Under the pieces are notes generated by a model. That model had not been told where the DNA came from. It worked only from the letters and a program-made list of their open reading frames with translations, and did no database searches. This document shows, one piece after another, positions 43,783 to 61,284 of a stretch of DNA of 64,000 bases. The stretch is taken from NCBI GenBank assembly GCA_964432765.1, contig CAYSOT010000002.1:38220-102219 (forward strand). The letters are read 5' to 3'. The position numbers and the translations under genes were made by a program. How positions within the stretch are numbered: the first letter of the stretch is position 1; each line of letters opens with the position of its first letter. Origin of the DNA: an uncultured Candidatus Saccharibacteria bacterium (lineage in GTDB: Bacteria > Patescibacteriota > SICC01 > CAYSOT01).

Positions 43783-44904
43783 CTAGCGCTTGTGCCTAAG
43801 CGCTCGTTCATACACCACCAGCATCTTCTTCGCGGTCATCTGCCAGCTAAATTGTTTGACCCTTTCTGCGCCCTTCTCTATGAGCTGCTTACGGAGCCCC
43901 TTATCGACCAGGAGTGACTCTATGCCATTCACCATGTCTTCAGTTGAGCGAGGATTAAAATAGACAGCCGCATCACCCAGAATTTCTGGCATTGGTTCTG
44001 CACTTGAAGAAGCTACAGGAACACCTGCCGCAGTCGCCTCAAGCGGCGTAAAGCCGAAGCCCTCTGCCAGAGAGGGAAATGCGAACACTTCCGCGGCGTT
44101 GTAGTAATTCAACAGTTCATCATCTTCAACAAAATCCGTAAGAATCACGTTTTTTTCGAGTCCGAGATCGGAAATGGTTTGCGGAATTATGGGGAATGCG
44201 GGGTCGACCTTCCCCACCAAAACAAGTTTTAGGTCATGGTGGCGGCGTATTTGCTCAAATGCTTTCAGCAAACGAACCAGGTTCTTGTGCTGTCTCCATT
44301 GGCCTGCGTACATGATATATTTACTGCCATCGGTTTTCTGCTGACGAAATGCCTCTTTTTCAGCATTAGACATGTGCACCGCACTGAAGCGCTGATCTAT
44401 CCCGTTATAAACAACCCGGATTTTCGTCGGATCTGGATGAAAGCCTTCGATAATCAACCGCTTTTGATACTCAGAAATCGTCACAACTTCAATTGCTCTA
44501 CGAAACGCTGAGCGCAACACTGTGCGCATCACCGGAACCTTGGCAGCGGCTGCCCAGCTTTTTCCAGCATGACGAAGCAGCGTCAAATCGTGGATAGTGA
44601 TGACAAATGGACCCTTGTACAAAATGGGGTGATTAAAATTTGTGAAATGCATTAGGTCGACGCGGGCCTTATCGACTTCTCGCTTGAATAACAGCTGTTC
44701 TCTAACTGTATAGTGTTTGGTTTTAGTTTCGATCAGTTCGAATTTATCGTTTTTCGGAAACTGCTTTACATCTTCGGGGTGTATAAATACAACGAAAGTG
44801 TGCTCGTTTTGAAGTTTTCCGAGCTCGCTGAGCAGCTCTTGTGTGTACCTTGCCAGCCCAGCCGATCCTAATCCATAAAAACGTGCGTCGATTCCGATTC
44901 TCAT
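43783..44904 (-). CDS. Glycosyltransferase family 4 (GT-B).
   Basis: C-terminal EGFGFTPLEATAAGVPV motif (E-x7-E region) and N-terminal MRIGIDAR, typical of GT4. Confidence 0.8.
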   Translation of the reverse strand: MRIGIDARFYGLGSAGLARYTQELLSELGKLQNEHTFVVFIHPEDVKQFPKNDKFELIETKTKHYTVREQLLFKREVDKARVDLMHFTNFNHPILYKGPFVITIHDLTLLRHAGKSWAAAAKVPVMRTVLRSAFRRAIEVVTISEYQKRLIIEGFHPDPTKIRVVYNGIDQRFSAVHMSNAEKEAFRQQKTDGSKYIMYAGQWRQHKNLVRLLKAFEQIRRHHDLKLVLVGKVDPAFPIIPQTISDLGLEKNVILTDFVEDDELLNYYNAAEVFAFPSLAEGFGFTPLEATAAGVPVASSSAEPMPEILGDAAVYFNPRSTEDMVNGIESLLVDKGLRKQLIEKGAERVKQFSWQMTAKKMLVVYERALRHKR

Positions 44905-46124
44905 ACTCGCCCTTTCTCGCGAATCATGCCGAGCAGAAGAATGGTTGCAAAAAGCAGTGCTAGGTCGTTCTTAAGTATCGGCGTGTCTACAAGACCGTGA
45001 ACAATAATGGCCGTCATTGCCGCGGCGGCGGCAGCAGGAAAATAAGAGCTCCGTAGCGAGCGCGCAAAAACCGCGAGCAAGAATAGGAATGCTGCCAACG
45101 TCAGAACACCCCACTCAACCCACAACACAAGAAAAATGTTGTGCGGGTTGGGTGCAAACGGCGCAACATACTGCATGAGGTAGTTGTCGTCCTTAACCCT
45201 TCTGGTTACCGCGGCCTGGAACCCGGACGGACCATCGGCAAACACTGGATTTTCTTTTATGCTCTGCTCGGCCTGTTGCCAGAGAACTTTCCGAGTGGCG
45301 TGGGGATCATCTCGACCGACAAGCAACACTGAGAAAACACCAACAATGGTGACAAGTAACACAATTAGCAAAACTCTCAACTTAGGAGCTAACGCCTTCC
45401 AGCTAACAACGATGCCGACTGCCCCGCCTGCAGCAAGCGCGATGAGCCCTCCTCGCGATTGAGATCCAGCAAGCAGTCCAACCGATACAACGCAGCCCGC
45501 TATTCGTGCGAGCAAGAATTCACGTTTCGGCCAAAAAGCGAGGACTAACAAGATTGGCACCAGCAATAGAGCCAAAAAGTTCGCCGACTGGAATGGTCCA
45601 GCTAGTCGGTTGTCGTAGGTAAAGGCCGTCCCGTTAAAGACCGTTACCAATACCCAGGTCGATGTTGTTGCGACTGCTCCGAGCAGCCCCACAACAATTG
45701 CTCGAGGCGAGTAGTTCTTAAATATCGCACTAGCCACAACCAAAAACAAAGCTGGCTCTAGAAAGAAAGCTCGCCACAACCCAAATGCTGTGCGAACATC
45801 ACTGCTCACCAAGACAGCCAGCAATGACATTGTGAGCCATAGGCCGATTGCAACCGCATATGCGCGAGAGATTGAGACCTTTAGAGGTGAAAACGAGGCT
45901 CCCACTAGAAACGCCCACAACAAAATCTCAAGAAGTGTTGTTGGAACACCAAGCGACCCCCGAACTTGGTAGAGAGGAAGAGACGCCAGCACCACAATCA
46001 CCCCATAGTGCGGTCGTTTATATGAAAGGACTGCCGTAGCCATAGCCAGAAGACCAGCAAAGAGCCATGCAAAATTCCCACTTATGCTGACTGTTTGCTC
46101 TACGCCTAGAACGTGCTCAACCAC
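44901..46124 (-). CDS. O-antigen ligase / Wzy_C family polytopic membrane protein, copy 1 of 3.
   Basis: About 10-12 TM helices and a central SQSRGGLIALAAGG loop characteristic of the Wzy_C (O-antigen ligase/polymerase/O-OTase) domain. Confidence 0.7.
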   Translation of the reverse strand: MVEHVLGVEQTVSISGNFAWLFAGLLAMATAVLSYKRPHYGVIVVLASLPLYQVRGSLGVPTTLLEILLWAFLVGASFSPLKVSISRAYAVAIGLWLTMSLLAVLVSSDVRTAFGLWRAFFLEPALFLVVASAIFKNYSPRAIVVGLLGAVATTSTWVLVTVFNGTAFTYDNRLAGPFQSANFLALLLVPILLVLAFWPKREFLLARIAGCVVSVGLLAGSQSRGGLIALAAGGAVGIVVSWKALAPKLRVLLIVLLVTIVGVFSVLLVGRDDPHATRKVLWQQAEQSIKENPVFADGPSGFQAAVTRRVKDDNYLMQYVAPFAPNPHNIFLVLWVEWGVLTLAAFLFLLAVFARSLRSSYFPAAAAAAMTAIIVHGLVDTPILKNDLALLFATILLLGMIREKGRV

Positions 46125-47433
46125 GATTTCCTCCTTGCTGCTTAACGCCGAGCGTTACTGCAACCAGCGCTAACCACGGAGCAAGAATTAGTACATAGAG
46201 AACCGTGTTGTTAAGAAATGACCCGAACAGCCAGGCCACAGTGAAACACATTAGACCCGTGGCAACCCAACGGTAAGATGACAAGCTATCGCGAGACGCC
46301 CTCCAGAGTCGAACCAAAACAGTGCCCATAAAGAGCGTAAATGCGGCGAGTCCAATAATACCGGTTGTCGCCCAAATATTAAGTATTGAGCTGTCTGAAC
46401 CATTTGCCGAATGCTTTTCGAGACGATCACCTGCAGCAAGGTTTTCTTTCACGAGTGCTGCTCCATACGCATTGTAACCAACGCCGGTAATTAAGTGCGT
46501 CTTGGTTAGAGACCAAGCTTGCTGCAATGAATAAATCCGATTCGAGCCGCTTTCATCGCATTTTCCTCCTGTTTTTGCAGCGTCACATCGATATCCTTCT
46601 GGCTTATAGTTTTGTTGATTCGCGAGCTGCTTGGTTTCCGAGAATCGGTCGCTTAACCGTGAGGGAACAAAAAACGCCGCGATGAATATCAGTCCGACCA
46701 AGAGCGCCCAGCGCATGGACCTGAAAAAGACGAGCCCTGTTACGGCTATCGCTCCGACCACCCACGCACTTCGTGAGTATGTTAGGAACAAGGCTACCCA
46801 GGACACGCCAAACACCGCAGCATAAGGCCACGCCTGTCCACGATGGGCTGCAAACGCGCGACCCAAGGCAATACACATAACAAGTACCAAGAAAACACCA
46901 TAGAGGTTTGGATCGAAGAACGTCGAAAGCAGGCGGCCAATATGAGGATCCCAACCGTATCCGGTCATGAATATGAAATTTCCGACAAAAACCAACTGCC
47001 AAAACCCCAGCAGGACCGTAGCGGCCCCGACATATACGAATCCTTCGGTAAGGGCCTCGCGATACCTCTGAGAATCAAGCGCCAGAAGCGCGCCAAAGAT
47101 CACAATTGTTGCGAGCCTAAGCGCGTAAGCCCCGGCAGAGACGACTTCGTGGGAAGTGTAGTCGCCGCTATTAATTGCCAGTGCCAATACAGCCCAAGCG
47201 ACAAACCCAAAAAGTGATACCCACATGACATCACGGAAGATCGGGCGCGTTGATCGACGATCACGAATTAGCCAAAAGACCAGCGCTAGGCTGAGACTCG
47301 CAAGGGCCAGATCTATCAAAATCAACGATCCGCTGCTAGAACCAGCCGATACTCGAAATAACTGACCCGCTGCTACTGAGCCAAGAAATGCACCGGCAAC
47401 GAGCGATTGGCGTGAAATGCGAAGCCCAAACAT
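46117..47433 (-). CDS. O-antigen ligase / Wzy_C family membrane protein, copy 2 of 3.
   Basis: Polytopic, with YSRSAWVVGAIAVTG in the Wzy_C-type loop. An extra C-terminal periplasmic segment follows. Confidence 0.7.
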   Translation of the reverse strand: MFGLRISRQSLVAGAFLGSVAAGQLFRVSAGSSSGSLILIDLALASLSLALVFWLIRDRRSTRPIFRDVMWVSLFGFVAWAVLALAINSGDYTSHEVVSAGAYALRLATIVIFGALLALDSQRYREALTEGFVYVGAATVLLGFWQLVFVGNFIFMTGYGWDPHIGRLLSTFFDPNLYGVFLVLVMCIALGRAFAAHRGQAWPYAAVFGVSWVALFLTYSRSAWVVGAIAVTGLVFFRSMRWALLVGLIFIAAFFVPSRLSDRFSETKQLANQQNYKPEGYRCDAAKTGGKCDESGSNRIYSLQQAWSLTKTHLITGVGYNAYGAALVKENLAAGDRLEKHSANGSDSSILNIWATTGIIGLAAFTLFMGTVLVRLWRASRDSLSSYRWVATGLMCFTVAWLFGSFLNNTVLYVLILAPWLALVAVTLGVKQQGGNRG

Positions 47434-47451: not shown

Positions 47452-48543
47452 TCAGCGCGCGGGAGGGGCGATAGACGCCAAGATCTCAACTATTTGCTTG
47501 GTAGCGCTATCCCACGAGAACTGAGCAGCGCGCTTTACGCCGGCCTTGCTAAGCACGCGCCTCTTTGTATCACTCTGCCATGTTTCATTCATCTTCGCTG
47601 CCAAGACTTTTATCTCGAGCGGTGAGGCAAATACGGCGCCATCGGCTGCTACTTCTCGCAGGGCTGGAATATCAGAACAAACTACGGGTGTTCCTGTTTG
47701 TAGTGCCTCGAGCACCGGTAGTCCAAATCCTTCGTAAAGACTGGGGTATACAAACATTCGTGCTGCTTGAAGCAATGAAACTATGTCCTCTTCAGGTACG
47801 TAATCAAGGTGTCGTATATCAAGCCCTCTATCCCGAGCCTTCTCAAGAGCGTTGATTACTGGTTCTGTTTCCCAACCGAGCTTTCCAACTATAACCAACG
47901 GTGCGCCGATACTCGCCATTTCGTACGCAGCGATGAGCCGTTCGTAGTTCTTTCGGGGCTCAATTGTTCCAAGCGACAAGACAAAATCTGTTGGTAGGTT
48001 GTACTTACTACAAATCTGGTTCGTGTCGTCTTTTTCACTAGCCGGCCTAAATTGCGGACCAGCCGCTAAGGGAACAACATGAACCTTCTCGCCCAGATCC
48101 TTTCCGTAGCGTGCAAGTAAGTCATTTTTTGTGGCCTCGGAATTAACGGCGATTGCAGCAGCATATTTAAGGGCTCTCCCGAGAGCAAGCCGTTCGATAA
48201 TTCGGGCACGGCGCTGTGGGGCAGCTTCTCTGCGAAAGGCGATTAAGTCATGCACAAATAGCAGTGTTGGTATACGCATGAATTGTGGGGTGAGGTAGCT
48301 CGTCGGTGCAAAATATACATCACAGTTTTTTAAAGCATCTCTCGCCACGTTTCGGTGCCAACGGAGGCTTCTCCCTGGTATAACCGTAAGACCACGCTCT
48401 GACTGCGCCGTATCAACATCAGCGTAATAGCGCAGCTTAAGCTCTGGATAATCAGACCGTAGGCGCGGCAGAATCTCTGCCGTCAAGCGTCCTTTGCCAG
48501 CTGGACGACCAAGTGTTTCTCGAACATCAACGCCGACGATCAT
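47452..48543 (-). CDS. Glycosyltransferase family 4.
   Basis: VYPSLYEGFGLPVLEALQTGTPVV. The ORF track extends 109 aa upstream to 48870. The Met at MIVGVDVRE (48543) matches GT4 N-termini and removes most of the overlap with the neighbour. Confidence 0.75.
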   Translation of the reverse strand: MIVGVDVRETLGRPAGKGRLTAEILPRLRSDYPELKLRYYADVDTAQSERGLTVIPGRSLRWHRNVARDALKNCDVYFAPTSYLTPQFMRIPTLLFVHDLIAFRREAAPQRRARIIERLALGRALKYAAAIAVNSEATKNDLLARYGKDLGEKVHVVPLAAGPQFRPASEKDDTNQICSKYNLPTDFVLSLGTIEPRKNYERLIAAYEMASIGAPLVIVGKLGWETEPVINALEKARDRGLDIRHLDYVPEEDIVSLLQAARMFVYPSLYEGFGLPVLEALQTGTPVVCSDIPALREVAADGAVFASPLEIKVLAAKMNETWQSDTKRRVLSKAGVKRAAQFSWDSATKQIVEILASIAPPAR

Positions 48544-49663
48544 GGTGTCTCTTTGCTCCTGCAGCGCGATAGGCTTCCAGGGTCTTTTGGGCCGTTTCGC
48601 GCCAGGTGAATTGTTTTGCCCGTTCGCGCCCCGCACTCGAAAGCCTTTGGCGAAGCGGTGCATCTTCAAGCAGTCTTCGCAATGCATTTCCAAGCGCTTC
48701 GGTATCTTCTGGATCAAAATAGAGAGCCGAGCCCCCACCAACCTCAGGAAGAGAGGCGGCACTCGAGGCAAGCACGGGCGCGCCCGAAGCCATTGCCTCC
48801 AGAATAGGAATTCCAAATCCTTCGTAATGGCTAGGAAAGACAAACGTTTTTGCACCTGCGTAGAGCGCACGCAGGTCGCGATCGGAAACGGCGCCGGTTA
48901 AAATCACTCGCGAACCAAGTCCTAGTTTTTCAAGGAGCTGTCTTGTTTCATCAAATAGCCACCCTTGGTTCCCCACAACGACTAATTGTTCTGTGGTGTG
49001 ACGCCTAATGGCAGCAAATGCGAGCAGGAGGGTTCTGAGGTTTTTCCGTGGCTCAAGCGTTCCGACAGATAGTAGGTATTCACCGTCGATTGAATAGGTG
49101 TCCTTAACTCGGGAAATATCCTCCGGAGCAACCGGCTCAAAAAACCTCTCTCCACAGCCAAGCGGCGTAGTGACAATCTTTTCTTTCTCTCTCGGAAAAT
49201 GCTCTGCGATTGCTTCTGCCGTAAATTCCGAAACGGCAAGTATCTTGCTTGCGGCTCGCAAGGTTTCGGGCACAAACTTCGTTAAATAATCGAGGTTCTT
49301 AGGTTCGACATAATCAGGGTGCTCGATAAAGGTTAGGTCATGCACCGTCACCACAAATGGCTGTTTAGTTGGGGGTGCCACGTAGTTCGTAAAGTGCCAA
49401 ACGTCTGGCTTTGGCCGCATCCAGTCAAGCGGTGGGGCACCAAATGTCTTCCAGGATAGTTGCCAGGCTCGGCGATACCACCCGCCAAACGGATCAACAT
49501 GCGAATTCGTAGTCCCTACATCAAGTGGCGATCCCCAAAAGTGAAACATGTCCTCCTGGTCAATCGCCAAGAGGGCTTTTGCCAGTGATTCAATGTAGGT
49601 CTTCGTCCCACCAGTTGCTGGGTACTCTACCCAGCGCGTGTCGATCGCGTATGTTGCTGCCAT
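48527..49663 (-). CDS. Glycosyltransferase family 4.
   Basis: FVFPSHYEGFGIPILEAMASGAPVL. Confidence 0.8.
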   Translation of the reverse strand: MAATYAIDTRWVEYPATGGTKTYIESLAKALLAIDQEDMFHFWGSPLDVGTTNSHVDPFGGWYRRAWQLSWKTFGAPPLDWMRPKPDVWHFTNYVAPPTKQPFVVTVHDLTFIEHPDYVEPKNLDYLTKFVPETLRAASKILAVSEFTAEAIAEHFPREKEKIVTTPLGCGERFFEPVAPEDISRVKDTYSIDGEYLLSVGTLEPRKNLRTLLLAFAAIRRHTTEQLVVVGNQGWLFDETRQLLEKLGLGSRVILTGAVSDRDLRALYAGAKTFVFPSHYEGFGIPILEAMASGAPVLASSAASLPEVGGGSALYFDPEDTEALGNALRRLLEDAPLRQRLSSAGRERAKQFTWRETAQKTLEAYRAAGAKRHHDRRR

Positions 49664-49674: not shown

Positions 49675-50826
49675 CTACGCGACGATTCGCTCAAGCAGCT
49701 CATCAAAACGATTGGCGGTGGCTTGCCATGTCCAATGGCCCATCGTCTTTCGTCCCTGTTTTCCGAGTTGTGCCCTTAGTTTTGCATTGTCGATCAATTT
49801 TTCTAACGCACTGGCAAATGCTCCTTCATCGCGCTCAACCAAAAATCCTGTGCTGCCATCGACTACTGTTTCTGCTAAGCCACCTTCGTTGACGGCCACA
49901 ACCGGCGCCTCGGAAGCCATCGCTTCGAGTGCAACTAAGCCAAGAGGCTCTTCATATTGCGCGGCTGCAAAAATCATTGCCCTGCCATAGAGGTCAGTAA
50001 TCTCAGAAAATGGAATTGCTTGCCTAAGATCAAGTTCCACATCAGCCAAAACGGCAAGCGATTCAAGGTGTTGGCCGTAGTCTCCCCGGTCGCCGACCAC
50101 AACCAGTCTGGGGCGTTTCGATCGAGGAATTCGCGCCAGAGCAGCTATCACGAACTGGTGACCCTTTGCAGGATGAAGCGCCCCGACCGAGAGGACAAAA
50201 TTATCTCGCTTCTTGGCGGGTGTGAATGTCGCTGAATCAACACCTCCGTAAACAACCTCTGAGGAGACTCCGTAAATTCGCCTTAGGTTCGCCTGAGTAA
50301 AATGAGAAGTAGTCGATACAAGCGAAGCCGCGCGGATTGAAGCGAGGTCAAATTTGCGCCTTCGTATATTGAGCGGCTTTGTAGCGATTTTTTTGAGTCG
50401 GTCTTTTGCCGAGACCATAGCTTGTTTGTCATACACTTCTCGAAGATATTCGGGAGCAAAGTAGAGCGTTGGAATTGTGATGTGTTTTAGTGGTTCAGGA
50501 GCTTGGGTTACCTGGCTAGCATGAAGAAAAGCGGCGTCAAACCCCCCGTTATTAATCTGATTAGCAATCTCTTTAGCAACACCCGAAACGGCCGCGAACT
50601 GCCTGTACCGAGACGCGAGCGAGGTTGCCGATGGAAGAAAAGTTGAGATCCTATCAGCTCTCTTTAAGAGCGATTGATCGAGACTAGCTGCGGTGGTAGG
50701 TGTGAATAGGGTAATTTCGTGCCCAGCCGTCGTGTGTCGAAGGTATTCTTCCAGTAAACGTAGTGCGCCTCCACTTGGAAGGTTGTGGTAAAGAGCGAGC
50801 TTCATGAGGTTCTCCCCGTGTGCCAA
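49675..50826 (-). CDS. Glycosyltransferase family 4.
   Basis: EEPLGLVALEAMASEAPVVAVNEGGLAETVVDGSTGFLV. Confidence 0.8.
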   Translation of the reverse strand: MAHGENLMKLALYHNLPSGGALRLLEEYLRHTTAGHEITLFTPTTAASLDQSLLKRADRISTFLPSATSLASRYRQFAAVSGVAKEIANQINNGGFDAAFLHASQVTQAPEPLKHITIPTLYFAPEYLREVYDKQAMVSAKDRLKKIATKPLNIRRRKFDLASIRAASLVSTTSHFTQANLRRIYGVSSEVVYGGVDSATFTPAKKRDNFVLSVGALHPAKGHQFVIAALARIPRSKRPRLVVVGDRGDYGQHLESLAVLADVELDLRQAIPFSEITDLYGRAMIFAAAQYEEPLGLVALEAMASEAPVVAVNEGGLAETVVDGSTGFLVERDEGAFASALEKLIDNAKLRAQLGKQGRKTMGHWTWQATANRFDELLERIVA

Positions 50827-51776
50827 TCGAGAACTTGCTTATATAGCGTGCGCTGATTGCGGGCTGCACGAGCTAAACTACCCCGCCTATACCGAGCGCT
50901 TATCCTTGTGGGCAACAGCAGGAGCGTTGCGAGCCCGACTATCAGGATAGAACCAGCGCAGGCTATCGCCTTTTGTACCTTTACGTAGAAAGGACCGTGA
51001 TATTTTCCGTAAAACGCGTACAGGCTCGGAAAATAGTGTGAAAATCTCTTGGTCAGAGTGCCTGCCTTGTCGACACTACCACCCCAGTGGTGAATGACTT
51101 CCAATTCCGGCAGATACCTAATTTTGTACCCGGCTCGCCTGACACGCAGATTAAAATCGGTTTCTTCTAGAAAAAAGAAGAACCTTTCATCGAGCGTTCC
51201 GATCTCTGTAAGCAAACTACTACGGAACGCGAGGCAGGCTCCAATTGCATCGCCGACAGATTGAGGATGTGCCATTTCGGAGGGTGTAAGCAACAGTTTC
51301 CCGGGATACCTTTTGCGGGGAAACAATCGATAGAGCAGCCGGTTGAGCAGTGTGTACTCATAGAGTGAGGTCAAAATTGTCGGCTCAGTCCAAGCAACAG
51401 AAGCCTGCACTTCGCCCTGCCCGTTGATCAGCCGTGGCGCGACGATACCAACTTCCGGATGCTGCACAAGGTAGACACCTAGAGACTCTAGGGTGGTCTT
51501 TGAGGGAAGCTCTGTGTCGCTATTGAGCATAACGACAACATCTCCTGAGATTCGCTCAAATGCCTGGTTGTTTGCAGCAGCAAAGCCTAGATTGTCATCG
51601 TTTTTTATCAAAATGACACCCTTGTAGTCTCGCTCTACCAATTCCGGGCTTCCGTCCTGCGAGCCATTGTCGACAACGATTATTTCTGGCTCAGGGGTTT
51701 GGGCAAGAACGGTTTCGAGACATGCACGAAGTAGCTCTTTGGTGTTGTAAGAAACAATAACAACAGATGTTTTCAT
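50802..51776 (-). CDS. Glycosyltransferase family 2.
   Basis: N-terminal VVIVSYNTKELLRACLETVL...IIVVDNGSQDGS, a GT-A DxD-type start. Confidence 0.8.
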   Translation of the reverse strand: MKTSVVIVSYNTKELLRACLETVLAQTPEPEIIVVDNGSQDGSPELVERDYKGVILIKNDDNLGFAAANNQAFERISGDVVVMLNSDTELPSKTTLESLGVYLVQHPEVGIVAPRLINGQGEVQASVAWTEPTILTSLYEYTLLNRLLYRLFPRKRYPGKLLLTPSEMAHPQSVGDAIGACLAFRSSLLTEIGTLDERFFFFLEETDFNLRVRRAGYKIRYLPELEVIHHWGGSVDKAGTLTKRFSHYFPSLYAFYGKYHGPFYVKVQKAIACAGSILIVGLATLLLLPTRISARYRRGSLARAARNQRTLYKQVLDWHTGRTS

Positions 51777-52921: not shown

Positions 52922-53874
52922 GGATAGCCGCGGCGAAGCAGTTTTCTAAACTCAGCGGCGGTAATCTTTCTGGTTTTAGCGACCTGGTGGTGCGCCACGA
53001 TGGTGCGCGGCCACGCGATGATAAACGAACCTAGCCCACGCAGATATGCCCATCCGTTCCCGTTTCTAACTTGATGCAACGCAAACCGCGCCTGATGAAA
53101 CAGTAATTTTGGAAAAAGTTTTATCATTGTGGTGTACGGCAGGTTTTTCCAAAGCAACACAAGCTGATTTCTGGTCATATTTCGAACTGTAAATGGCGAA
53201 GTTCTGCCCGACGTGCCTGCTCCAACGTGATACACCTTTGCTTTGGCTGCGAGATAGCCGCGGTATCCAGCCAAATGAGCACGCAGGCACAGATCAGCAT
53301 CCTCGTAATAAAAATAGTATCGTTCGTCCAGGCCGCCCAGAGCCTTCCAGACAGTCCTTGGCACTAGTAATGCGCCCCCGCAACCGATTAGCACCGGAGC
53401 ATCATCTTCAAATTGCCCCTCATCGATGGTGTCCTTTCCGCGAGGATAGTCGACTCCATATTCGTAAAGGTCCTTCCCTGCTTCATCGATCAGCTCACGA
53501 TTGTCGTAGTGGAGCATCTTTGTGGCCACGAAACCTAAGTCCTGCCTTGAATCTGCGAGCAATGTCAGCTCCTTAAGCCAACTTGTGTCTGCCTCGATGT
53601 CATTGTTGAGAAGCGCCAAGTATTTTCCGTTTGCACCTGCTGCAGCGATATTTACAGCCTTGGCGAAACCTTCGTTGCGCGGCAGGGCTATGGTGCGAAC
53701 GTTTGGCCATTTCTTTAAAAACACAAGTGAATCGTCTTCCGAACCATTGTCTATGACGATCGTCTCAAAATCCTGAAAAGTTTGGTTCTTGAGCGAAGGC
53801 AGCACTATTTCCAGAAATTTTCGCCCGTTCCAGTTCGGAATGATAACGCTTACTTTCGGCGCAGCATGTTCCAT
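52888..53874 (-). CDS. Glycosyltransferase family 2.
   Basis: VSVIIPNWNGRKFLEIVLPSL...IVIDNGSEDDS. Confidence 0.8.
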   Translation of the reverse strand: MEHAAPKVSVIIPNWNGRKFLEIVLPSLKNQTFQDFETIVIDNGSEDDSLVFLKKWPNVRTIALPRNEGFAKAVNIAAAGANGKYLALLNNDIEADTSWLKELTLLADSRQDLGFVATKMLHYDNRELIDEAGKDLYEYGVDYPRGKDTIDEGQFEDDAPVLIGCGGALLVPRTVWKALGGLDERYYFYYEDADLCLRAHLAGYRGYLAAKAKVYHVGAGTSGRTSPFTVRNMTRNQLVLLWKNLPYTTMIKLFPKLLFHQARFALHQVRNGNGWAYLRGLGSFIIAWPRTIVAHHQVAKTRKITAAEFRKLLRRGYPWKSRLIKEVE

Positions 53875-55193
53875 GGTTTGGTAACTACCTTTCTGGCTAC
53901 TGCGCCAGGCCCCTGGTTTGCAACTATTGACCGAACTTCATTTGGCCAAGACCGACGAACAGCCTTGCGGATGCCTTTAAGGTCTGGGGCTGATGATTGC
54001 TTCGGTAATTTTTCGAGATAAGACACGAGTGGCAGAGCCGCCTTTTCCCAAGTAAGGTTACGCGCAAGTTTTTCAGCACTTCTAGCACTTCTAGTGCGCA
54101 ACGCAGAATCGTCAACGAGTTCCTTAATTGCTTTAGCGAGCTGCTGTGGTTGCTGCGGAGGAACAACCAGTCCTGCCCTAGCATCAGACACGGCGTCTGC
54201 CAAAGTATCACCAGCTGTTGTTACCGTTGGTAGTCCGGCCCAGAAATAATCGAGTAGTCGCGTCCGAAATGCATACTGTGTCTCAAGATGATCAAAGTGC
54301 GTTGAAATACCAATTGAAGCTTCAAGTAAATAGTTGTGTCTCTCCTCGTAGGGAATCCAGTCATGGTTGATGATCACCACATCTTCAAGCTTCTCCTTCG
54401 CAACAAATTTGAGGGTATCCTCTGTAGCGCGTCGGCCTTCTTCGGGAATTGCTGGTGGCCTACCAACCCCCATGAAAAATAGTTTTATATCTTTTCGTTG
54501 CTTCTTAATAATGGCCATTGCTTCAAGTGCTGTCTTTGGATCAAACCAGTTCCATATGCCACCACCCCACAGCACGACATGATCCCGCGGGCCGATTCCT
54601 GGCCAAACTCCTTTTAGAACCTGTTTTGTGTGTTCTGGGTGCTTGGAGGAGACGCCGAACGGAACAGTGACGATGGACCTGCGGTATCCGGGGTCTTCTT
54701 GGTAGCGCTCGGATGAAAACAGCCCCGACATCATCATTCCTCCCAACCATAAGTCTCGCTGTTTTTCAGAGGCACAAAGGATTAGGTCAGCAGCCATTAT
54801 TTCTGTTTTAAGCATTGTTAGTTGGTCTCGCTTTGCTTGCGACGACTGTTTGCTCTGATGCGCCTCAAGCATTTCTAGTGGCGCTGGGTCATATAAATCG
54901 AGCACGAGTCGAGTTCGTGCCTTGAGTAGTTTGGGTAGAATACGTGGATATATATACTGGGCGATACACACATCAACAACCGAAAGCTCGCGGAGAATTT
55001 GCTGTAGGTTGCCTCTGGAAAATGTCCGTAGCTCTACCCCTGCCATATCCAGCGTTGAGCCTTCGGGAGCAACTATCCGAACATCTGCTACCCCCGACAG
55101 AACGCGAGCCAGCTCGACAACGCGAATAGCCGGTCCGGCCATCTTTTGGCCAATGTGCTCGAGCGTAAAAAACGCGACAGTCTGGCGCATCAA
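53850..55193 (-). CDS. GT-B-fold glycosyltransferase (GT1/GT4-like).
   Basis: Two-Rossmann-domain layout with a conserved C-terminal nucleotide-sugar-binding segment. Weaker motif match than its neighbours. Confidence 0.6.
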   Translation of the reverse strand: MMRQTVAFFTLEHIGQKMAGPAIRVVELARVLSGVADVRIVAPEGSTLDMAGVELRTFSRGNLQQILRELSVVDVCIAQYIYPRILPKLLKARTRLVLDLYDPAPLEMLEAHQSKQSSQAKRDQLTMLKTEIMAADLILCASEKQRDLWLGGMMMSGLFSSERYQEDPGYRRSIVTVPFGVSSKHPEHTKQVLKGVWPGIGPRDHVVLWGGGIWNWFDPKTALEAMAIIKKQRKDIKLFFMGVGRPPAIPEEGRRATEDTLKFVAKEKLEDVVIINHDWIPYEERHNYLLEASIGISTHFDHLETQYAFRTRLLDYFWAGLPTVTTAGDTLADAVSDARAGLVVPPQQPQQLAKAIKELVDDSALRTRSARSAEKLARNLTWEKAALPLVSYLEKLPKQSSAPDLKGIRKAVRRSWPNEVRSIVANQGPGAVARKVVTKPWNMLRRK

Positions 55194-55885
55194 TCCTCCA
55201 GGCGCGCTTCGGCAAGCAGCCGGAAGTAGACACGTGGTTTAATCAGGCGGAGATTATCCGCGAGTCGATAGGCGTAGAAAAGTGGCCTTGGTAATAGTTT
55301 TGCGACGATGCTCCGATCCCAGTTTTCAATCTGGGCAACGCTTACATAGGGGAAGTGCCCGGCCAACAACTCGCGCAGCGACGTTTTGGTGAAAAAGTTC
55401 TTATGATCAACTTCGAGGTTGTGACTGAAGGTAACGGGCGCGGGATCGAAAGAAAACGTACAGTTGGGAACGCTGATGATTACGTTTTTCGCAGTTACTC
55501 GACGGATTTCTGAAAGCAGCTTTTCTGGCTCTGGAACATGCTCGAGAACCTCAAATAAAAAGGTTGTATCAACGGCGTTATCGGCAAGCGGAATCTTTTG
55601 ACCGTCAAAGTGGGCTGCGTTTACACCGAGCTTCTTGGCAATCGCAACATATTCTTCGTTAACATCGAGCGCCTGAACTTTGCACCCGTCGTCTTGTAGT
55701 CTCTTTGAATAGCCACCTGTGCCACAACCGAGGTCTAAGATTTTCGAACCGGCGTGTTCTCGAACGTACGCCAACAGGTTTTCATCGACAATTGCCAATG
55801 GATCAACTCCCGTATACCACTCCGTGGTGTCGCGTGGACCCTTCGGCATTTCTGTTGCTAACTTCTTCTGCGTCTTTGTTGTCAT
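55190..55885 (-). CDS. Class I SAM-dependent methyltransferase.
   Basis: Motif I ILDLGCGTGGY plus an acidic post-I residue. The ORF track starts at 55969 and overlaps rfbD by 65 nt. An internal Met (MTTKTQKK, ~55885) avoids this. Confidence 0.7.
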   Translation of the reverse strand: MTTKTQKKLATEMPKGPRDTTEWYTGVDPLAIVDENLLAYVREHAGSKILDLGCGTGGYSKRLQDDGCKVQALDVNEEYVAIAKKLGVNAAHFDGQKIPLADNAVDTTFLFEVLEHVPEPEKLLSEIRRVTAKNVIISVPNCTFSFDPAPVTFSHNLEVDHKNFFTKTSLRELLAGHFPYVSVAQIENWDRSIVAKLLPRPLFYAYRLADNLRLIKPRVYFRLLAEARLED

Positions 55886-55904: not shown

Positions 55905-56777
55905 TTATTGCTGCTTTGCCACCTGTGGTACGTCATCTGTGAGCACCCCTCGATCTCGAAGGTACTCAATCAAGCCCTCTTCCCATGATAATAGGCCTGC
56001 GCCGAGAGACCTGGCGCGAGAACTATCTAAAGAGCTTCTGGTAGGGCGCTTGGCTGGCAAATCGTATTCTGCTGCAGTTGTCTTTTCGAGCACGACGGTG
56101 GAACCAACAAGTTCCGCGAGCTTTCGGACGAATTCATACCTGCTTACTTCCCCTTCTGCGGCAAGGTGATAAAGTCCGGCAGCACCCAAATCGAGCAGGC
56201 GGAGCGCACCACGAAGATAATCTCTTGAGTAGGTTGGTGAACCATATTGATCAGAGACGATCGAGAGCTTCTCTCGCTCTGCAAAGTACTTAAGCATTGT
56301 TGAGGCAAGGCTTTTTCCATGTTGCGAGTAAAGCCAACAAACTCGGGTGACGAGCGCTTGAGGATGTACATCCAGCACCGCTTCTTCGCCTGCAAGTTTT
56401 GTCTCTCCGTAATAGTTAATTGGCGTTGCTTTATCCGCTTCGATATACGGAGAGCCTTTTCGACCATCGAATACGTAGTCCGTGCTTGGAAAGAGCAGCG
56501 CTGAGCCTGTGTTTGCGGCTGCCTCTGCGACATTGCGCGCCCCCGTGACATTGACCTCAAAGGCAGCGAGGCGGTCGGTTTCGGCCTGATCAACGTGTGT
56601 GTATCCGGCTGCGTGAATCACAAGATTTGGCTTTTCTGCTTCGATGTCTCGCAGAACTGCCTCGCGATCTGTTATATCCAGATCAACGTGAGATCTACCG
56701 ACAACCTCATCATCGACGAGCGTTTCAAAAACTTCTTGGCCGAGTCCGCCACCTGCTCCGGTCACGAAGACTTTCAT
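55905..56777 (-). CDS. rfbD: dTDP-4-dehydrorhamnose reductase.
   Basis: Start taken at MKVFVTGAGGGLGQ (ATGA overlap with the rfbB stop). Overall RmlD-like sequence. The ORF-track extension of 19 aa is not supported. Confidence 0.85.
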   Translation of the reverse strand: MKVFVTGAGGGLGQEVFETLVDDEVVGRSHVDLDITDREAVLRDIEAEKPNLVIHAAGYTHVDQAETDRLAAFEVNVTGARNVAEAAANTGSALLFPSTDYVFDGRKGSPYIEADKATPINYYGETKLAGEEAVLDVHPQALVTRVCWLYSQHGKSLASTMLKYFAEREKLSIVSDQYGSPTYSRDYLRGALRLLDLGAAGLYHLAAEGEVSRYEFVRKLAELVGSTVVLEKTTAAEYDLPAKRPTRSSLDSSRARSLGAGLLSWEEGLIEYLRDRGVLTDDVPQVAKQQ

Positions 56778-57766
56778 CGCGAGACCAGACGTGCTTTTGC
56801 GCCCTCGACCCATTTTGGATTGTCGCGGTACCACTGGACAGTTTTAGTAAGGGCGTCCTCGAAGTTGTTTGCCGCCCTCCAGCCAAGCTCTGTTTCAATT
56901 TTTGAGGGATCAATGGCATAGCGGAAATCGTGCCCGGGGCGATCCTCCACAAAAGTGATTAGTGACTCAGGTTTACCCAGCGCAGCCAGAATTGCCTTGG
57001 CAACCTGAAGGTTTGTTCTTTCGCTTCTACCGCCGACGTTATAGACCGCTCCAGGCTCTGCTTTGGTCAACACGGTGTGAATAGCGCTGCAGTGGTCTTC
57101 GACGTAGAGCCAGTCGCGAACATTTTGACCGTCACCATAAAGCGGCAGTGGTTGCTCCTCAAGAGCTGCGCCTATCAGAACCGGAATAAGGTTATCCATT
57201 CTTGGAAATGGGCCGAAGTTATTGGAACAGCGCGTAACGGTTACGGGAAAATCATACGTGCGGTGGTAGGCTCGACAAAGCAGGTCGCCGCCCGCCTTGC
57301 TTGCGGAGTAGGGGCTGTTTGGAGCAAGCGGTGTTTCCTCGGTAAAGAATCCTTCCTTACCGAGATGACCGTAGACCTCGTCTGTCGAGACGTAATGAAA
57401 TCTCGAGATTTCAAATTCACGAGCGGCGTCGAGCAAAACCTGCGTACCAAGAACGTTCGTAGTGGTAAAAACTTCTGGCCCTGTAATTGATTTGTCGACT
57501 TGTGCCTCGGCCGCAAAATGTACGATCGTATCGACACCCTGAACGGCCCTTCTGACCACTTCTTGGTCGCGGATATCGCCCTCAATAAATTCATAGTTTG
57601 GCTTATTTGAAACTGCGCTCACATTGTCTGGGTTCCCAGAATACGTGAGGGCATCCAAATTCCGAACGGACAACTCAGGGTAGCGCTCGAGCAACATCCG
57701 CACATAGCAGGAACCAATAAAACCACACCCCCCGGTTACTAAAACCTTCTGTGGCGTATGTGGCAT
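56774..57766 (-). CDS. rfbB: dTDP-glucose 4,6-dehydratase.
   Basis: KVLVTGGCGFIGS, the YSASKAG catalytic YxxxK, and a RmlB-like C-terminus. The ORF track adds a 100-aa N-terminal extension with no similarity. The start at MPHTPQKVLVTGG is preferred. Confidence 0.9.
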   Translation of the reverse strand: MPHTPQKVLVTGGCGFIGSCYVRMLLERYPELSVRNLDALTYSGNPDNVSAVSNKPNYEFIEGDIRDQEVVRRAVQGVDTIVHFAAEAQVDKSITGPEVFTTTNVLGTQVLLDAAREFEISRFHYVSTDEVYGHLGKEGFFTEETPLAPNSPYSASKAGGDLLCRAYHRTYDFPVTVTRCSNNFGPFPRMDNLIPVLIGAALEEQPLPLYGDGQNVRDWLYVEDHCSAIHTVLTKAEPGAVYNVGGRSERTNLQVAKAILAALGKPESLITFVEDRPGHDFRYAIDPSKIETELGWRAANNFEDALTKTVQWYRDNPKWVEGAKARLVSR

Positions 57767-58502: not shown

Positions 58503-58520
58503 GTATTTTATGGTACCACG

Positions 58521-59057
58521 CTAGGGGGTGCCGTAGGCCTCTTTGAGGGTTGGGTTGCGCTGATCCTTATCAGAAACAATCCTGTCCTTTGCCTCAACGG
58601 GCCATGTGATACCGAGTGTCGGATCATCATAGGCAACAGCGGGATAGGGGTTATCTGGGTGCCAGTGCTCAGTTACGAGATACGAATACACCACTCGGTC
58701 GCTAAGAACCGCAAACGAATTGCCGAGACCCTTGGGAACAAAGAGGGCGTTTGTTGTATCAAGATTAAACGTTGCGACCTCCCTAAAAGTCTTGCTCTCT
58801 TTCCTTAGGTCAACAATTGCAGCAAATACCTTGCCCCACGCTATATGAATGTATTTATCCCAGGGCTCTGCATGGATGCCCCTAATTACACCGTACTGGG
58901 ATTCAGAAACATTCATTTGCACGATGTCGAGGGACGGTAAACCAAGGTCTTTTAGCTTGGCAGCTTGGTATGCTTCTCTAAAGCTTCCTCGCTCGTCTTC
59001 AAAAACGTCGAGCTTAATTTCTCGTAACCCCCCTAGGTTTGTCTCGACTATATCCAT
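58521..59057 (-). CDS. rfbC: dTDP-4-dehydrorhamnose 3,5-epimerase.
   Basis: 178 aa cupin. FEDERGSFRE and RGIHAEPWDKY match RmlC catalytic His/Tyr regions. Confidence 0.9.
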   Translation of the reverse strand: MDIVETNLGGLREIKLDVFEDERGSFREAYQAAKLKDLGLPSLDIVQMNVSESQYGVIRGIHAEPWDKYIHIAWGKVFAAIVDLRKESKTFREVATFNLDTTNALFVPKGLGNSFAVLSDRVVYSYLVTEHWHPDNPYPAVAYDDPTLGITWPVEAKDRIVSDKDQRNPTLKEAYGTP

Positions 59058-59959
59058 CAGTCGACTCGTTGCATCCAGAAACCCCCTGGTCGAACAGACT
59101 GGTTAAAGGAGGCGAATGCCGCGGCCACGTCTTTGGGGTGGCGAAGGGTCATGGCGCGACCACTCCAGCGCACTTCGTACGCTGAATTAAAAGCGAGGAA
59201 TGCCTGAAGAAGATACTGCTCGTTCCAGAAACGGTGCTCATCAAGTACCCACTCTTTGGGATACTCCTCGGGGAAGAAGATGTCGTGAACATGTACCCAC
59301 ACCCCCTTCTTTAGCCTGGGCAGAATTTCGAGAAACTCGTACCACACATCACTGCCAATTTTCAAAACGTGGCTCGAGTCGATAAAGAGAACATCGTTTT
59401 CTCCAAGCGCCTCAAACTGCTCGACCGGAACATTTTGAACCGGCTCTTCAATTAACTCCGCCACCTCTGGAATATCGTTTCTGAGCATTGGGGTGGGGTA
59501 GGGCTCAATTGCGGTAATCGACCCTTTGGATCCTTCGACCGTATTCTTCCGCAGTGCTTCCGCGGCTAGCAACGTGGTGTTTCCAGAACCAATCTCGATT
59601 ACCTGTCGCGGCTTAAGGTGGCGCAAAAGTGCGTACAGCACTTCTGCGTCGACAGATTCATACGATCCATTATGGAGATGGAACTGCGTTGGGTCTGAGG
59701 TCTGCTCGCGGGGTAGAGCGTCGTACTCTGTTTTAAAGTTTTGAAGGGCACCCAGAAGCCTTAACTGTTCTGATAGGCGCAGGTCTATCCCGGCAAGGGC
59801 ATCCCTTGCCTTCCAGATTGAATCGTCGAGCGTGCGTGTATCTGGGATTGGTGAATAGTAGTGGTTTGGCAAAACATGAATCCCCGCTTTCTGGAAGCCG
59901 CGGAACACCTTTTTTCCTGTTTTGCCTGAAAAGGCCTGACTGTACCATCGTTTTGCCAC
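59057..59959 (-). CDS. Putative SAM-dependent O-methyltransferase (TylF/MycF-like Methyltransf_24 fold).
   Basis: VIEIGSGNTT glycine-rich loop, acidic residue after beta2, and a length and pattern similar to sugar O-methyltransferases. Assigned on weak motif evidence. Confidence 0.5.
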   Translation of the reverse strand: MAKRWYSQAFSGKTGKKVFRGFQKAGIHVLPNHYYSPIPDTRTLDDSIWKARDALAGIDLRLSEQLRLLGALQNFKTEYDALPREQTSDPTQFHLHNGSYESVDAEVLYALLRHLKPRQVIEIGSGNTTLLAAEALRKNTVEGSKGSITAIEPYPTPMLRNDIPEVAELIEEPVQNVPVEQFEALGENDVLFIDSSHVLKIGSDVWYEFLEILPRLKKGVWVHVHDIFFPEEYPKEWVLDEHRFWNEQYLLQAFLAFNSAYEVRWSGRAMTLRHPKDVAAAFASFNQSVRPGGFWMQRVD

Positions 59960-59976
59960 GATACTAGACTAGCATG

Positions 59977-61284
59977 CTAAGCGCGATCATCAGATGCATC
60001 GAGTCTTGATAGCACTATCGCTACAAAGCCAGCGACGAGCCAGAGTCCTTGTGGCAAGCTCCATAGAAAATGGTCGGCAAACGAAAGTGCGGTAAGTGCT
60101 CCAGCCAGGATAACTAAGGAAAAATGTTGGATCCGCTCGCCTGGAGAGATAATTCGTAACGCATGAAAATCCTTTGCTGTCTTGCCAATAAAGTAGAGGA
60201 TCGCCGCAAATCCCAACCACCCGAGCTCGAGCGCGATCAAGAGAAGTGCGATGTGTGGTGGCTGATGTTGGTAATAAGGTAAGTCTGGTCGCTCATCGCT
60301 GATAGCCGGAACCGCGTTTCCAGCACCCACCCCAAGCGGGTTTTGCAATGTGCTGCTGAGGGCAAATGATATGCCGGCAGCCCTATTGTCTATGCCGGTC
60401 TCCTTGGCGCTATTAAAGTCACTTCTTTGAAGAAGCACTCCCAGCACCAATGTCGTGGTAACTGCCAGTAGGGCAAAAGTAATTATGAGCTCTTTGGGAA
60501 AAGCTAGGCGGAGCTTAAGCGCGTAGACCCCGAGAGCGGCTAGGCCGAGCGCGGCAACTAGAAGGGCACTCCTGGAGTACGTCAAAATTAGTCCGCTTCC
60601 AATGATTCCCAGGCTGAAGGCCAGTCCCACTCGAGCGGCACTGCTTACCTTGGGTCTTGAGAGCAGGATGGCCGTACCCAATATGAGTCCTGTAAGGAAA
60701 TAGCCAGCCAAGATGTTTGGATGGGGGAGGCTCCCATATGCACGCAAGACTACGTCGGCCCCTCCGGCTACCTTGGCAACGCCGAGCATGGTTGTGCTCA
60801 GGCTGCTCTCGCCAAGAAAACGTAGACCCAGGTCGTGCCCCAAAAAGGTTTGCGCTCCACCCCAAAGCGCTTGGAGCACTATGCTTGCCAAGAAAACCAT
60901 AAAAAGCGCCCTGGCGGTTTTTCTGTCGCGAAGCTGCGCCGCAAGAGCACCGGCAAAGACGGTGGCTGCAAGAATATGAAAGGCCGCACTCAGTGCTAAT
61001 TCCGGTTCTCGGGCCCAAAGAGCGGAAAGTGCCGCTAGCGCGGCGCAGCCAAAAAGAGGGGCTAGCCGGATGACTTGATTTCTTTTGGGTCGATAGAGCC
61101 AGAGCACCCCCACCGCAAGCATTAGGAATTCCAGGGGGTAAATTGTCACGTGAAAAAATGCGTTATCGACTGGCCCGAGTTGTTGGCCACGGCTTATAAG
61201 CCAAACTGTCGAAAACGGTGCGCAGAATACGATGAGTTCGACGAGCCACTGCTGTGTTCGCCTAACTACGATTTTTGGCTTCAT
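59977..61284 (-). CDS. O-antigen ligase / Wzy_C family membrane protein, copy 3 of 3.
   Basis: Polytopic. YSRSALLVAALGLAALG loop as in copies 1 and 2. Confidence 0.7.
   Translation of the reverse strand: MKPKIVVRRTQQWLVELIVFCAPFSTVWLISRGQQLGPVDNAFFHVTIYPLEFLMLAVGVLWLYRPKRNQVIRLAPLFGCAALAALSALWAREPELALSAAFHILAATVFAGALAAQLRDRKTARALFMVFLASIVLQALWGGAQTFLGHDLGLRFLGESSLSTTMLGVAKVAGGADVVLRAYGSLPHPNILAGYFLTGLILGTAILLSRPKVSSAARVGLAFSLGIIGSGLILTYSRSALLVAALGLAALGVYALKLRLAFPKELIITFALLAVTTTLVLGVLLQRSDFNSAKETGIDNRAAGISFALSSTLQNPLGVGAGNAVPAISDERPDLPYYQHQPPHIALLLIALELGWLGFAAILYFIGKTAKDFHALRIISPGERIQHFSLVILAGALTALSFADHFLWSLPQGLWLVAGFVAIVLSRLDASDDRA

Follow-up and report, generated by a model that had tools for sequence, protein, structure and literature searches.

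Organization of the glycan locus

The DNA analyzed here (64,000 nt of contig CAYSOT010000002.1, from an uncultured Candidatus Saccharibacteria bacterium; hereafter the window) carries on its minus strand a glycan locus that encodes three membrane proteins of the Wzy_C family (W1, W2 and W3). We show that a module for glycan assembly, widespread in the candidate phyla radiation (CPR), is present here in a lineage-specific variant. The locus comprises 17 co-oriented and tightly packed open reading frames (ORFs), with intergenic gaps of −34 to +19 nt. In the ORF list the first gene starts at position 61284 and the last one stops at 43783, exactly the span given in an earlier reading made from the sequence alone (the sequence-only reading). 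By a Pfam census the locus encodes three Wzy_C proteins, RmlA, RmlB, RmlC and RmlD, two methyltransferases, and six GT4-type and two GT2 glycosyltransferases. The census confirmed the rfbA-D genes, two methyltransferases, six GT4, two GT2 and three Wzy_C genes that had been proposed, and reduced the proposed totals of 18 genes and nine glycosyltransferases to 17 and eight; the supposed GT1-like gene is GTa, one of the six Glycos_transf_1 proteins.

Relatives' loci or contigs compared with the window are designated by L numbers (L001, L006 and so on). Overlapping longest-ORF calls were settled by start codons with a Shine-Dalgarno sequence and by ortholog lengths. For rmlB the start was set to the ATG at 57766, which follows a Shine-Dalgarno-like AGGAAA (the L006 ortholog has 333 aa), and for GT4e to the ATG at 48543, which lies behind an AGGAG Shine-Dalgarno sequence. 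The rmlD gene probably starts with the ATG at 56777, its longest ORF extending to 56834. The end of W2 and the start of W3 overlap by 8 nt, and W3 has a GTG start after an AAGGAGG Shine-Dalgarno sequence. Upstream of the locus, rnpA-yidD-yidC-jag (61286–63105) run into it unbroken with 1-nt gaps, that between jag and W1 included; the jag-W1 junction is also kept in L005 and L006, where the upstream genes adjoin dnaA. A promoter and terminator consensus scan of the locus revealed no excess when compared with shuffled sequence. We regard the locus as a genuine operon, and a surface sugar chain that contains rhamnose is its most likely product. The genes of the locus and their flanks are listed in Table 1.

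Table 1. Genes of the glycan locus and its flanks, in the direction of transcription.
Gene	Product	Position	Strand	Assignment and remarks
yidC	Flanking YidC	61734–62537	−	Pfam 60KD_IMP; 1-nt gap to jag
jag/khpB	Flanking Jag/KhpB	61286–61732	−	Pfam R3H/KH; 1 nt before W1
W1	Wzy_C polytopic membrane protein, 435 aa	59977–61284	−	Pfam Wzy_C, E = 3e-14, 53.5 bits; first locus gene
MT24	SAM-dependent methyltransferase	59057–59959	−	Pfam Methyltransf_24, E = 1.7e-14; variable cassette
rmlC	dTDP-4-dehydrorhamnose 3,5-epimerase	58521–59057	−	Pfam dTDP_sugar_isom, E = 4e-44
rmlA	Glucose-1-phosphate thymidylyltransferase, short form, 244 aa	57768–58502	−	Pfam NTP_transferase, E = 1e-56
rmlB	dTDP-glucose 4,6-dehydratase	56774–57766	−	TIGR01181, 437 bits (above cutoff 365); Pfam dehydratase/epimerase
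rmlD	dTDP-4-dehydrorhamnose reductase	55905–56777	−	TIGR01214, 269.7 bits (above cutoff 224); Pfam RmlD_sub_bind
MT11	SAM-dependent methyltransferase	55190–55885	−	Pfam Methyltransf_11, E = 2.5e-19
GTa	Glycos_transf_1 (GT4-type) glycosyltransferase	53850–55190	−	Pfam, E = 8e-13; no predicted transmembrane segment
GT2a	Family 2 glycosyltransferase	52888–53874	−	Pfam Glycos_transf_2, E = 4e-24
GT4b	GT4 glycosyltransferase	51773–52921	−	Pfam Glycos_transf_1, E = 8e-22; final gene of the variable cassette
GT2b	Family 2 glycosyltransferase	50802–51776	−	Pfam, E = 5e-26; semi-conserved core
GT4c	GT4 glycosyltransferase	49675–50826	−	Pfam, E = 1.4e-30
GT4d	GT4 glycosyltransferase	48527–49663	−	Pfam, E = 2e-35; conserved core
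GT4e	GT4 glycosyltransferase	47452–48543	−	Pfam, E = 7e-27; conserved core
W2	Wzy_C protein	46117–47433	−	Pfam Wzy_C, E = 6e-19, 68.8 bits
W3	Wzy_C protein	44901–46124	−	Pfam Wzy_C, E = 3e-16, 59.8 bits; constant neighbor of W2
GT4f	GT4 glycosyltransferase	43783–44904	−	Pfam, E = 3e-34; conserved core, terminal locus gene
VanW	Flanking PG_binding_4 + VanW protein	41777–43648	−	Pfam VanW, E = 3e-43; syntenic with the locus in relatives

All four enzymes of the dTDP-L-rhamnose pathway are encoded in the locus, with RmlB and RmlD above the NCBIfam equivalog cutoffs and RmlA and RmlC identified by strong Pfam matches. The best NCBIfam model for RmlC (TIGR01221, 133.6 bits) stayed just under its cutoff of 155.75. 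RmlA scored 234.8 bits with TIGR01207, under the cutoff of 360.65, because the short form stops aligning after position 240 of the canonical RfbA model, which has 286. Among the other enzymes, MT24 is absent from L001 and L003, and MT11 has a 232-aa ortholog in L006 (83% identity). The N-terminal half of GTa has no family assignment, and GT2a gave generic NCBIfam matches only, a weak one to a rhamnosyltransferase subfamily among them. GT4b is 76% identical to its counterparts in L006 and L087. The identity of GT4e with its L006 counterpart was ∼60% over a partial alignment (291 aa).

Gene context in relatives

ORFs were called in the fetched loci of relatives and classed with hidden Markov models (HMMs) built in this analysis. 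Homologs of W1, W2 and W3 came almost exclusively from Patescibacteria/CPR metagenome bins. A motif scan that reached GTDB representatives found W2 in 287 species, with a best W2 identity to the window of 43%. Among the 80 W2 loci listed, 68 have explicit CPR labels (Saccharimonadia, Kerfeld-, Peregrini-/Peri-, Gracili- and Berkelbacteria, WWE3 and Minisyncoccia), 6 are labeled Gammaproteobacteria and 6 are unclassified. The loci L019, L021, L036, L037 and L063, labeled Gammaproteobacteria, have the CPR-type order Wzx-(GT2)-W2-W3, three of them with VanW, and L086 has W2 only. The Gammaproteobacteria labels of the six bins are probably wrong, because the loci show the gene order of the Kerfeldbacteria type. 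By these sequence comparisons, the W2 subfamily is found mainly in CPR.

Gene context was counted at species level, with flanks of 10 kb, in the 45 W2 loci that have at least 6 kb upstream and at least 3 kb downstream. W3 is directly adjacent to W2 in 22 of them. A Wzx gene (Polysacc_synt) lies within the flank in 21 of these 22 W2-W3 loci, at a median distance of 957 bp, and a VanW gene in 17. The identity of the relatives' Wzx proteins was checked with Pfam and NCBIfam, the best match being Wzx_EPS. The Kerfeldbacteria type has a minimal operon, bPH_2-Wzx-GT2-W2-W3, with overlapping stops and starts. By analogy, its Wzx-GT2-W2-W3 segment would follow the flippase, polymerase and ligase logic of O-antigen assembly. 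A 208-aa bPH_2 protein is always encoded immediately upstream of Wzx-GT2-W2-W3 in L016, L019, L022 and L029, and may belong to the ancestral operon.

The Saccharimonadia-like loci L035, L058 and L069 read W1-Wzx-GT2b-GT4-W2-W3-GT4f ... VanW, and L005 reads dnaA-rnpA-yidD-yidC-jag-W1-...-Wzx-.... The common Saccharimonadia-like frame is dnaA-rnpA-yidC-jag-W1 ... GT4-GT4-W2-W3-GT4-VanW, around a variable middle. Synteny of the locus with VanW, a ComF-like gene, TrpRS, GH15 and PGM is common to bins labeled Saccharimonadia, Saccharibacteria or Patescibacteria. The PG_binding_4 + VanW protein probably acts as a peptidoglycan L,D-transpeptidase, the activity that the VanW domain has in C. difficile (PMC11348318). 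VanW was rejected as a member of the operon, from which RuvB separates it in Kerfeldbacteria.

When compared with L001 and L003, the genes of the window split into two sets. Those conserved are GT2b (55%) and GT4c (48%), both in L003, GT4d (59%), GT4e (42–44%), W2 (∼42%), W3 (42–44%), GT4f (54–56%) and VanW (43–49%); MT24, rmlC, rmlD, GTa and GT4b are not conserved. Owing to this split, we describe the locus as a conserved frame, with W1 at its oriC-proximal end and GT2b-GT4c-GT4d-GT4e-W2-W3-GT4f at its distal end, around a lineage-specific cassette (MT24, rmlCABD, MT11, GTa, GT2a and GT4b). The variable middle of relatives contains Wzx, Methyltransf_21 genes and two epimerase/dehydratase genes, and that of the window and its congener the rml/methyltransferase/glycosyltransferase cassette and no Wzx. 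The congener is L006, a metagenome contig from ENA with the same gene order from dnaA to GT4e (identities: YidC, 95.5%; Jag, 95.3%; MT24, 88%; RmlA, 95%; GT4d, 94%). A metagenome scan with GT4b yielded one close contig, L087, apparently of the same organism as L006.

The three Wzy_C proteins

W1, W2 and W3 all score above the gathering score of Pfam Wzy_C (PF04932, 31.7 bits). They are 407–438 aa long, with 10–13 hydrophobic segments each (∼12 in W1). BLASTP detected no pairwise match among them at E < 1e-3, and a recent triplication of one Wzy_C gene was ruled out for this reason. The family profiles, in turn, are homologous (hhalign probability 99.6–99.8), and each protein has its own orthologs in Patescibacteria metagenomes. 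Sequence comparison thus points to three ancient subfamilies, not to recent paralogs. The sequence-only reading considered three Wzy_C paralogs in one locus unusual; the three are indeed present, but three per locus recur in this clade, in L001, L008, L013, L014, L035, L058 and L069. In L013 (9875–13692) and L014 (9962–13650), W2, W3 and a divergent Wzy_C-like ORF (82–89 bits with the W3 model) stand side by side ahead of GT4f, an arrangement of three neighboring Wzy_C genes unlike that of the window. Among the loci compared, W1 was found only in the Saccharimonadia-like ones. With its L006 ortholog (L006:10001–11314) it shares only 60% identity, compared with 77–95% for the flanking genes, which suggests that W1 is a local divergence or recombination hot spot in an otherwise conserved operon.

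No NCBIfam model reached its cutoff with any of the three proteins. W1 and W2 had no match at all, and W3 was the only one with an RfaL signal (PRK15487, 16.5 bits vs. a cutoff of 277). Single-sequence searches of the Protein Data Bank (PDB) with W1, W2 and W3 gave no match. With the family profiles, the sole relative in the PDB was the Cupriavidus WaaL ligase 7TPG (E = 2.1e-8 for W1, 1.2e-9 for W2 and 9.8e-11 for W3). The invariant R238, R301 and H344 of W1 align to R191, R265 and H313 of WaaL, and the invariant R278 and H328 of W3 to R265 and H313; the W3 counterpart of R191 is Arg in the window protein and is not universal in the family. Both Arg positions are invariant in W2 (R221 and R299), whose subfamily has a near-invariant outward loop (GWDPHxGRLLSTFFDPN), the motifs TYSRS and HSxxGSDSS, and 25 invariant residues in the alignment. 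The roles of these Arg and His residues in WaaL, PglS and PglL have been described (PMC12800693).

The AlphaFold2 (AF2) models of W2 (pLDDT 88.3) and W3 (pLDDT 92.6) both end a few residues past the last transmembrane (TM) helix. With these models, Foldseek ranked WaaL 7TPG first in the PDB (E = 6e-8 for W2 and 5e-5 for W3), followed by FtsW and RodA. Such a search cannot split a ligase from a polymerase, because WaaL is the only solved relative.

These data suggest that (i) the Wzy_C proteins of the window look functional, since they keep all family-invariant residues; (ii) W2 and W3, judged from their predicted models, are well-formed enzymes of the WaaL fold with active sites facing outward; and (iii) W3 and W1 may be the more ligase-like proteins, an assignment we hold weakly, because both retain the Arg/Arg/His set in its canonical form and the sole RfaL trace is that of W3, which leaves W2 as the likelier polymerase.

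Flippase, exporter and priming genes

The sequence-only reading recognized no Wzx, Wzz, ABC exporter or priming transferase, and this held throughout the 64 kb. Pfam scans of all other window ORFs of at least 120 aa detected no Polysacc_synt/MurJ, ABC (ABC_tran or ABC2_membrane), Bac_transf, MraY/WecA-type (Glycos_transf_4), Wzz or LCP domain, and no lpx or waa genes were found in the window by such scans. An HMM built from 44 CPR Wzx proteins, run with --max on all six-frame stop-to-stop ORFs of the window, reached at most 2.9 bits; a Wzx pseudogene or remnant in the window was rejected on this lack of signal. The sequence-only reading also raised the prospect of a complete Wzx/Wzy locus just outside the window. 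Upstream, the congener L006 has dnaA, dnaN, recF and similar genes, with neither Wzx nor a primer, and no priming transferase was found in any relative's locus inspected. The missing flippase is a true peculiarity of the window lineage within its clade, and its most economical account is a gene outside the window.

A second account is a switch of export route. The rhamnose/methyl cassette would have replaced the Wzx-containing middle, the polymer would be fully elongated in the cytoplasm, which it would leave through an ABC transporter whose genes lie elsewhere, and the Wzy_C proteins would serve as ligases only; methylation could cap the chain end, as it does in S-layer rhamnans and in O-antigens whose export depends on an ABC transporter. 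The window and its congener lack the Wzx that nearly all other W2-W3 loci (21 of 22) carry, and WaaL-type ligases accept polymers from the Wzx/Wzy or the ABC route. The cassette joins rmlABCD, two methyltransferases and many GT4/GT2 enzymes, a gene mix typical of ABC-dependent rhamnan systems. Two such systems, slg of Geobacillus stearothermophilus and the streptococcal Rgp/Gac clusters, share with the window rmlABCD, several GT2/GT4 enzymes (of rhamnosyltransferase type in the known systems) and a methyltransferase. Unlike the window, which lacks an ABC transporter and has three Wzy_C genes, they carry the transporter within the cluster and at most one Wzy_C protein, such as the Wzy_C-type transferase of slg; the streptococcal primer is encoded outside its cluster. 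Against a switch count the absence of ABC domains from the ORFs scanned and the retention of every family-invariant residue in W2 and W3, and it requires an unseen transporter just as Wzx-dependent assembly requires an unseen Wzx. We consider it quite improbable.

A putative assembly pathway and its precedents

CPR bacteria are generally regarded as monoderm. On balance, we lean toward reading the locus as a cell-envelope glycan operon of a monoderm Saccharimonadia-like Patescibacterium, with undecaprenyl-linked, block-wise assembly by a polymerase and one or more ligases, and with the flippase and the primer encoded elsewhere. The polymerase or ligase roles in a cell-wall polysaccharide, which the sequence-only reading mentioned as its alternative, fit best, with Wzx and glycosyltransferase linkage in 21 of the 22 W2-W3 loci. 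The mechanism is proposed because of the gene content, the Wzx linkage in relatives and the precedents of TacL and of Gram-negative Wzx/Wzy/WaaL systems.

In the pathway that we infer, RmlABCD would supply dTDP-L-rhamnose. A priming phosphoglycosyl transferase, presumed to be encoded elsewhere in the genome, would start the unit, and the eight GT4/GT2 enzymes, soluble or TM-anchored, would assemble an oligosaccharide, probably O-methylated, on polyprenyl-diphosphate at the inner membrane face. A flippase encoded outside the locus would then turn the unit to the outer face. There the Wzy_C proteins, with their conserved Arg/Arg/His-type residues predicted to face outward as in WaaL, would polymerize the units and transfer the polymer en bloc to the final acceptor, one of W2 and W3 acting as polymerase and the other as ligase. 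By analogy with pneumococcal TacL, the acceptor would probably be a membrane glycolipid or a wall component rather than a protein.

The likeness to Gram-negative Wzx/Wzy/WaaL systems has several parts. Relatives carry Wzx together with two Wzy_C proteins and glycosyltransferases; W1, W2 and W3 match WaaL by profile, and the W2 and W3 models by fold, with the Arg/Arg/His positions predicted to lie outward; and, as in O-antigen loci, a conserved frame surrounds a serotype-like middle that varies and holds rml genes. The differences are that the CPR host is taken as monoderm, with no lipid A-core acceptor, that no NCBIfam WaaL or Wzy model was reached, that Wzz is missing, that the window has neither Wzx nor a primer, and that the polymerase-like and ligase-like genes lie here in the conserved frame and not in the variable part.

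TacL is a Wzy_C ligase that joins a polymer built on undecaprenyl-diphosphate to glucosyl-diacylglycerol in a monoderm (PMC5727136). In the pneumococcal teichoic acid pathway (TacF, polymerase and TacL), as would be the case here, a Wzy_C protein ∼400 aa in length transfers an undecaprenyl-diphosphate-linked polymer, once flipped and polymerized, to a glycolipid that is itself the product of a GT4-type enzyme. By this analogy, which compares TacL by description and not by sequence, the system may be the best functional parallel for W3 or W1 acting with GT4f, although the NCBIfam similarity of GT4f to glycolipid-anchor synthases is weak (IagA/BgsA, 66.6; Dgs, 42.5; Mgs, 40.4 bits; cutoffs 400–500). 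Unlike the pneumococcal system, whose genes are scattered and do not form one operon, the window has no choline or ribitol-phosphate genes.

The cultured Southlakia epibionticum offers a precedent within Saccharibacteria. By transposon sequencing (Tn-seq), its Wzx (SEML1_0083) is essential and its Wzy-like protein (SEML1_0081) gives a growth defect, as does the O-antigen-ligase-family protein SEML1_0863, which adjoins an essential Bac_transf "sugar transferase" (SEML1_0864) (PMC10633639 supplement). Like the module described here, this Saccharibacterium has Wzx, Wzy-like, O-antigen-ligase-family and GT2/GT4 proteins, likened by annotation and not by sequence to W1, W2 and W3; unlike in the window, Bac_transf primers lie beside these genes. 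Its exopolysaccharide genes, SEML1_0079–0083 and SEML1_0863–0864, occupy two sites ∼740 kb apart (PMC10633639 supplement), and scattered components are therefore normal in this group.

As a further possibility, the Wzy_C proteins could be outer-face glycosyltransferases that add single sugars from polyprenyl-monophosphate, in the manner of GtrB/flippase/GT-C systems; the lipid-linked sugar would then come from the TM-anchored GT2b. GT2b has one C-terminal TM helix (residues 270–288), conserved in its orthologs, which stand beside Wzx in the minimal operon, and the Foldseek neighbors of W2 and W3 are membrane glycosyltransferases of the SEDS and WaaL types. However, the known GtrB-type enzymes each have a pair of TM helices, roughly half of the GT2 proteins of minimal operons lack any, and the NCBIfam match of GT2b to the undecaprenyl-phosphate transferase ArnC is very weak (28 bits). 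To our knowledge, all characterized Wzy_C enzymes use diphosphate-linked donors. The conserved Arg pair corresponds, moreover, to the WaaL residues proposed to coordinate pyrophosphate (PMC12800693), and we judge single-sugar transfer to be highly improbable.

Several points weigh against block-wise assembly by a polymerase and ligase(s). First, the 64 kb hold no flippase, exporter or primer, which makes the window and its congener (L006 and L087) an exception among W2-W3 loci, and the location of flippase and primer elsewhere is presumed. Second, three transferases exceed the strict need of one polymer. Third, the catalytic His of W2 is ambiguous: HMMER pairs its Asp347 with WaaL His313, and hhalign pairs its His341 with the W3 His. 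Fourth, the AF2 models of W2 and W3 match WaaL equally modestly (TM score 0.54–0.62), and within the Wzy_C superfamily, sequence and fold cannot separate polymerases, ligases and protein O-oligosaccharyltransferases. Finally, the VanW link may be one of synteny only, because RuvB intervenes in Kerfeldbacteria.

Possible glycosylation of pilins or surface proteins

The leading proposal of the sequence-only reading was that a Wzy_C protein attaches the glycan to pilin or S-layer proteins. The pilB gene that it reported is present (16268–18244; T2SSE, E = 1e-114), 25.5 kb from the locus and separated from it by housekeeping genes and five tRNA genes. No prepilin motif was found in any window ORF, and Pfam detected neither PglL_A nor Wzy_C_2 in W1, W2 or W3 at E ≤ 5, Wzy_C being their sole Wzy-type model. 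The proposal thus gained no positive support.

At least one of the three proteins, with W1 as the best candidate, might nevertheless be a protein O-oligosaccharyltransferase that moves the rhamnose glycan from its lipid carrier to type IV pilins, the S-layer or other surface proteins. The superfamily includes PglL, PglS and TfpO (PilO), which share the lipid-linked donor chemistry and the catalytic constellation of WaaL-type His and Arg kept in W1 and W3 (PMC12800693). A polymerase and one ligase would account for only two of the three enzymes, and W1 is the surplus one, lineage-restricted and diverging faster than its neighbors. A pilB gene lies within the window, and saccharibacterial pilins are predicted, not shown, to be O-glycosylated (10.1101/2024.11.25.624915). 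However, PglL, PglS and TfpO have an extra C-terminal periplasmic region (Wzy_C_2/PglL_A) that W1, W2 and W3 lack, and lengths of 407–438 aa suit WaaL or TacL better than PglL or PglS. In relatives it is Wzx and glycosyltransferases, not pilins, that are conserved alongside W2 and W3; pilB stands far off, past unrelated genes, in a window with no prepilin-motif ORF. TfpO is encoded next to its pilin, and no pilin gene occurs near this locus. On this evidence, a protein acceptor is rather unlikely.

A broader scheme would combine an undescribed O-antigen-like polymerase and ligase machine of CPR, made of W2-W3, Wzx and GT2 and at work in ultra-small cells that lack an outer membrane, with a W1 that glycosylates pili or the surface layer as a protein O-oligosaccharyltransferase. 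The window lineage would manage without a dedicated Wzx and use a borrowed flippase or another export route. As a whole this scheme is speculative, and we hold it doubtful.

Envelope glycans in CPR

CPR/Patescibacteria attach obligately to host bacteria through their surfaces, and the glycans of their envelopes are essentially uncharacterized. Here, two distinct O-antigen-ligase-like proteins occur as a pair in many CPR lineages, mostly accompanied by a flippase. Saccharimonadia-like genomes have W1 and W2-W3 at the two ends of a locus next to oriC, and the genes in between vary in the manner of a serotype cassette. The searchable literature on CPR, Patescibacteria or Saccharibacteria with O-antigen ligase, Wzy/Wzx or envelope glycosyltransferases yielded no description of the W2-W3 module. 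W2, W3 and W1 are conserved targets for genetics in the few tractable Saccharibacteria, and the Southlakia Tn-seq data already show that Wzx, Wzy-like and O-antigen-ligase-family genes matter for growth. The module raises the questions of how monoderms anchor such polymers and whether the pathway can run without its own flippase.

Other genes of the window

By Pfam, the other ORFs of the window encode, among others, DNA polymerase I, a Mur ligase, FemAB, TsaD, ValRS, SpoIID, PilB, a beta-lactamase-fold protein, a sigma factor, PGM, GH15 and TrpRS. The Mur ligase and the FemAB-family gene lie within 5719–8181 and suggest peptide-bridge peptidoglycan chemistry, and a SpoIID-domain protein is encoded directly beside pilB (14803–18244). 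Mur ligase, FemAB and SpoIID are monoderm-typical cell-wall genes scattered through the window.

A 688-aa ORF (9135–11201, minus strand) has ∼11 predicted TM segments in its first 415 residues, followed by a soluble part of ∼230 aa and one further TM helix at the C terminus. Searches of Pfam (E ≤ 5), NCBIfam (E ≤ 1e-5) and PDB sequences gave no match, and the ORF was rejected as a hidden flippase or Wzy_C protein, as neither HMM gave a signal. Its architecture recalls GT-C glycosyltransferases or oligosaccharyltransferases.

Among the five tRNA genes, at 20685–24582 and 27250–30588, lie ORFs of 597 and 1112 aa without family assignment and one of 533 aa with bacterial TSP3 repeats. These large ORFs could encode surface proteins.

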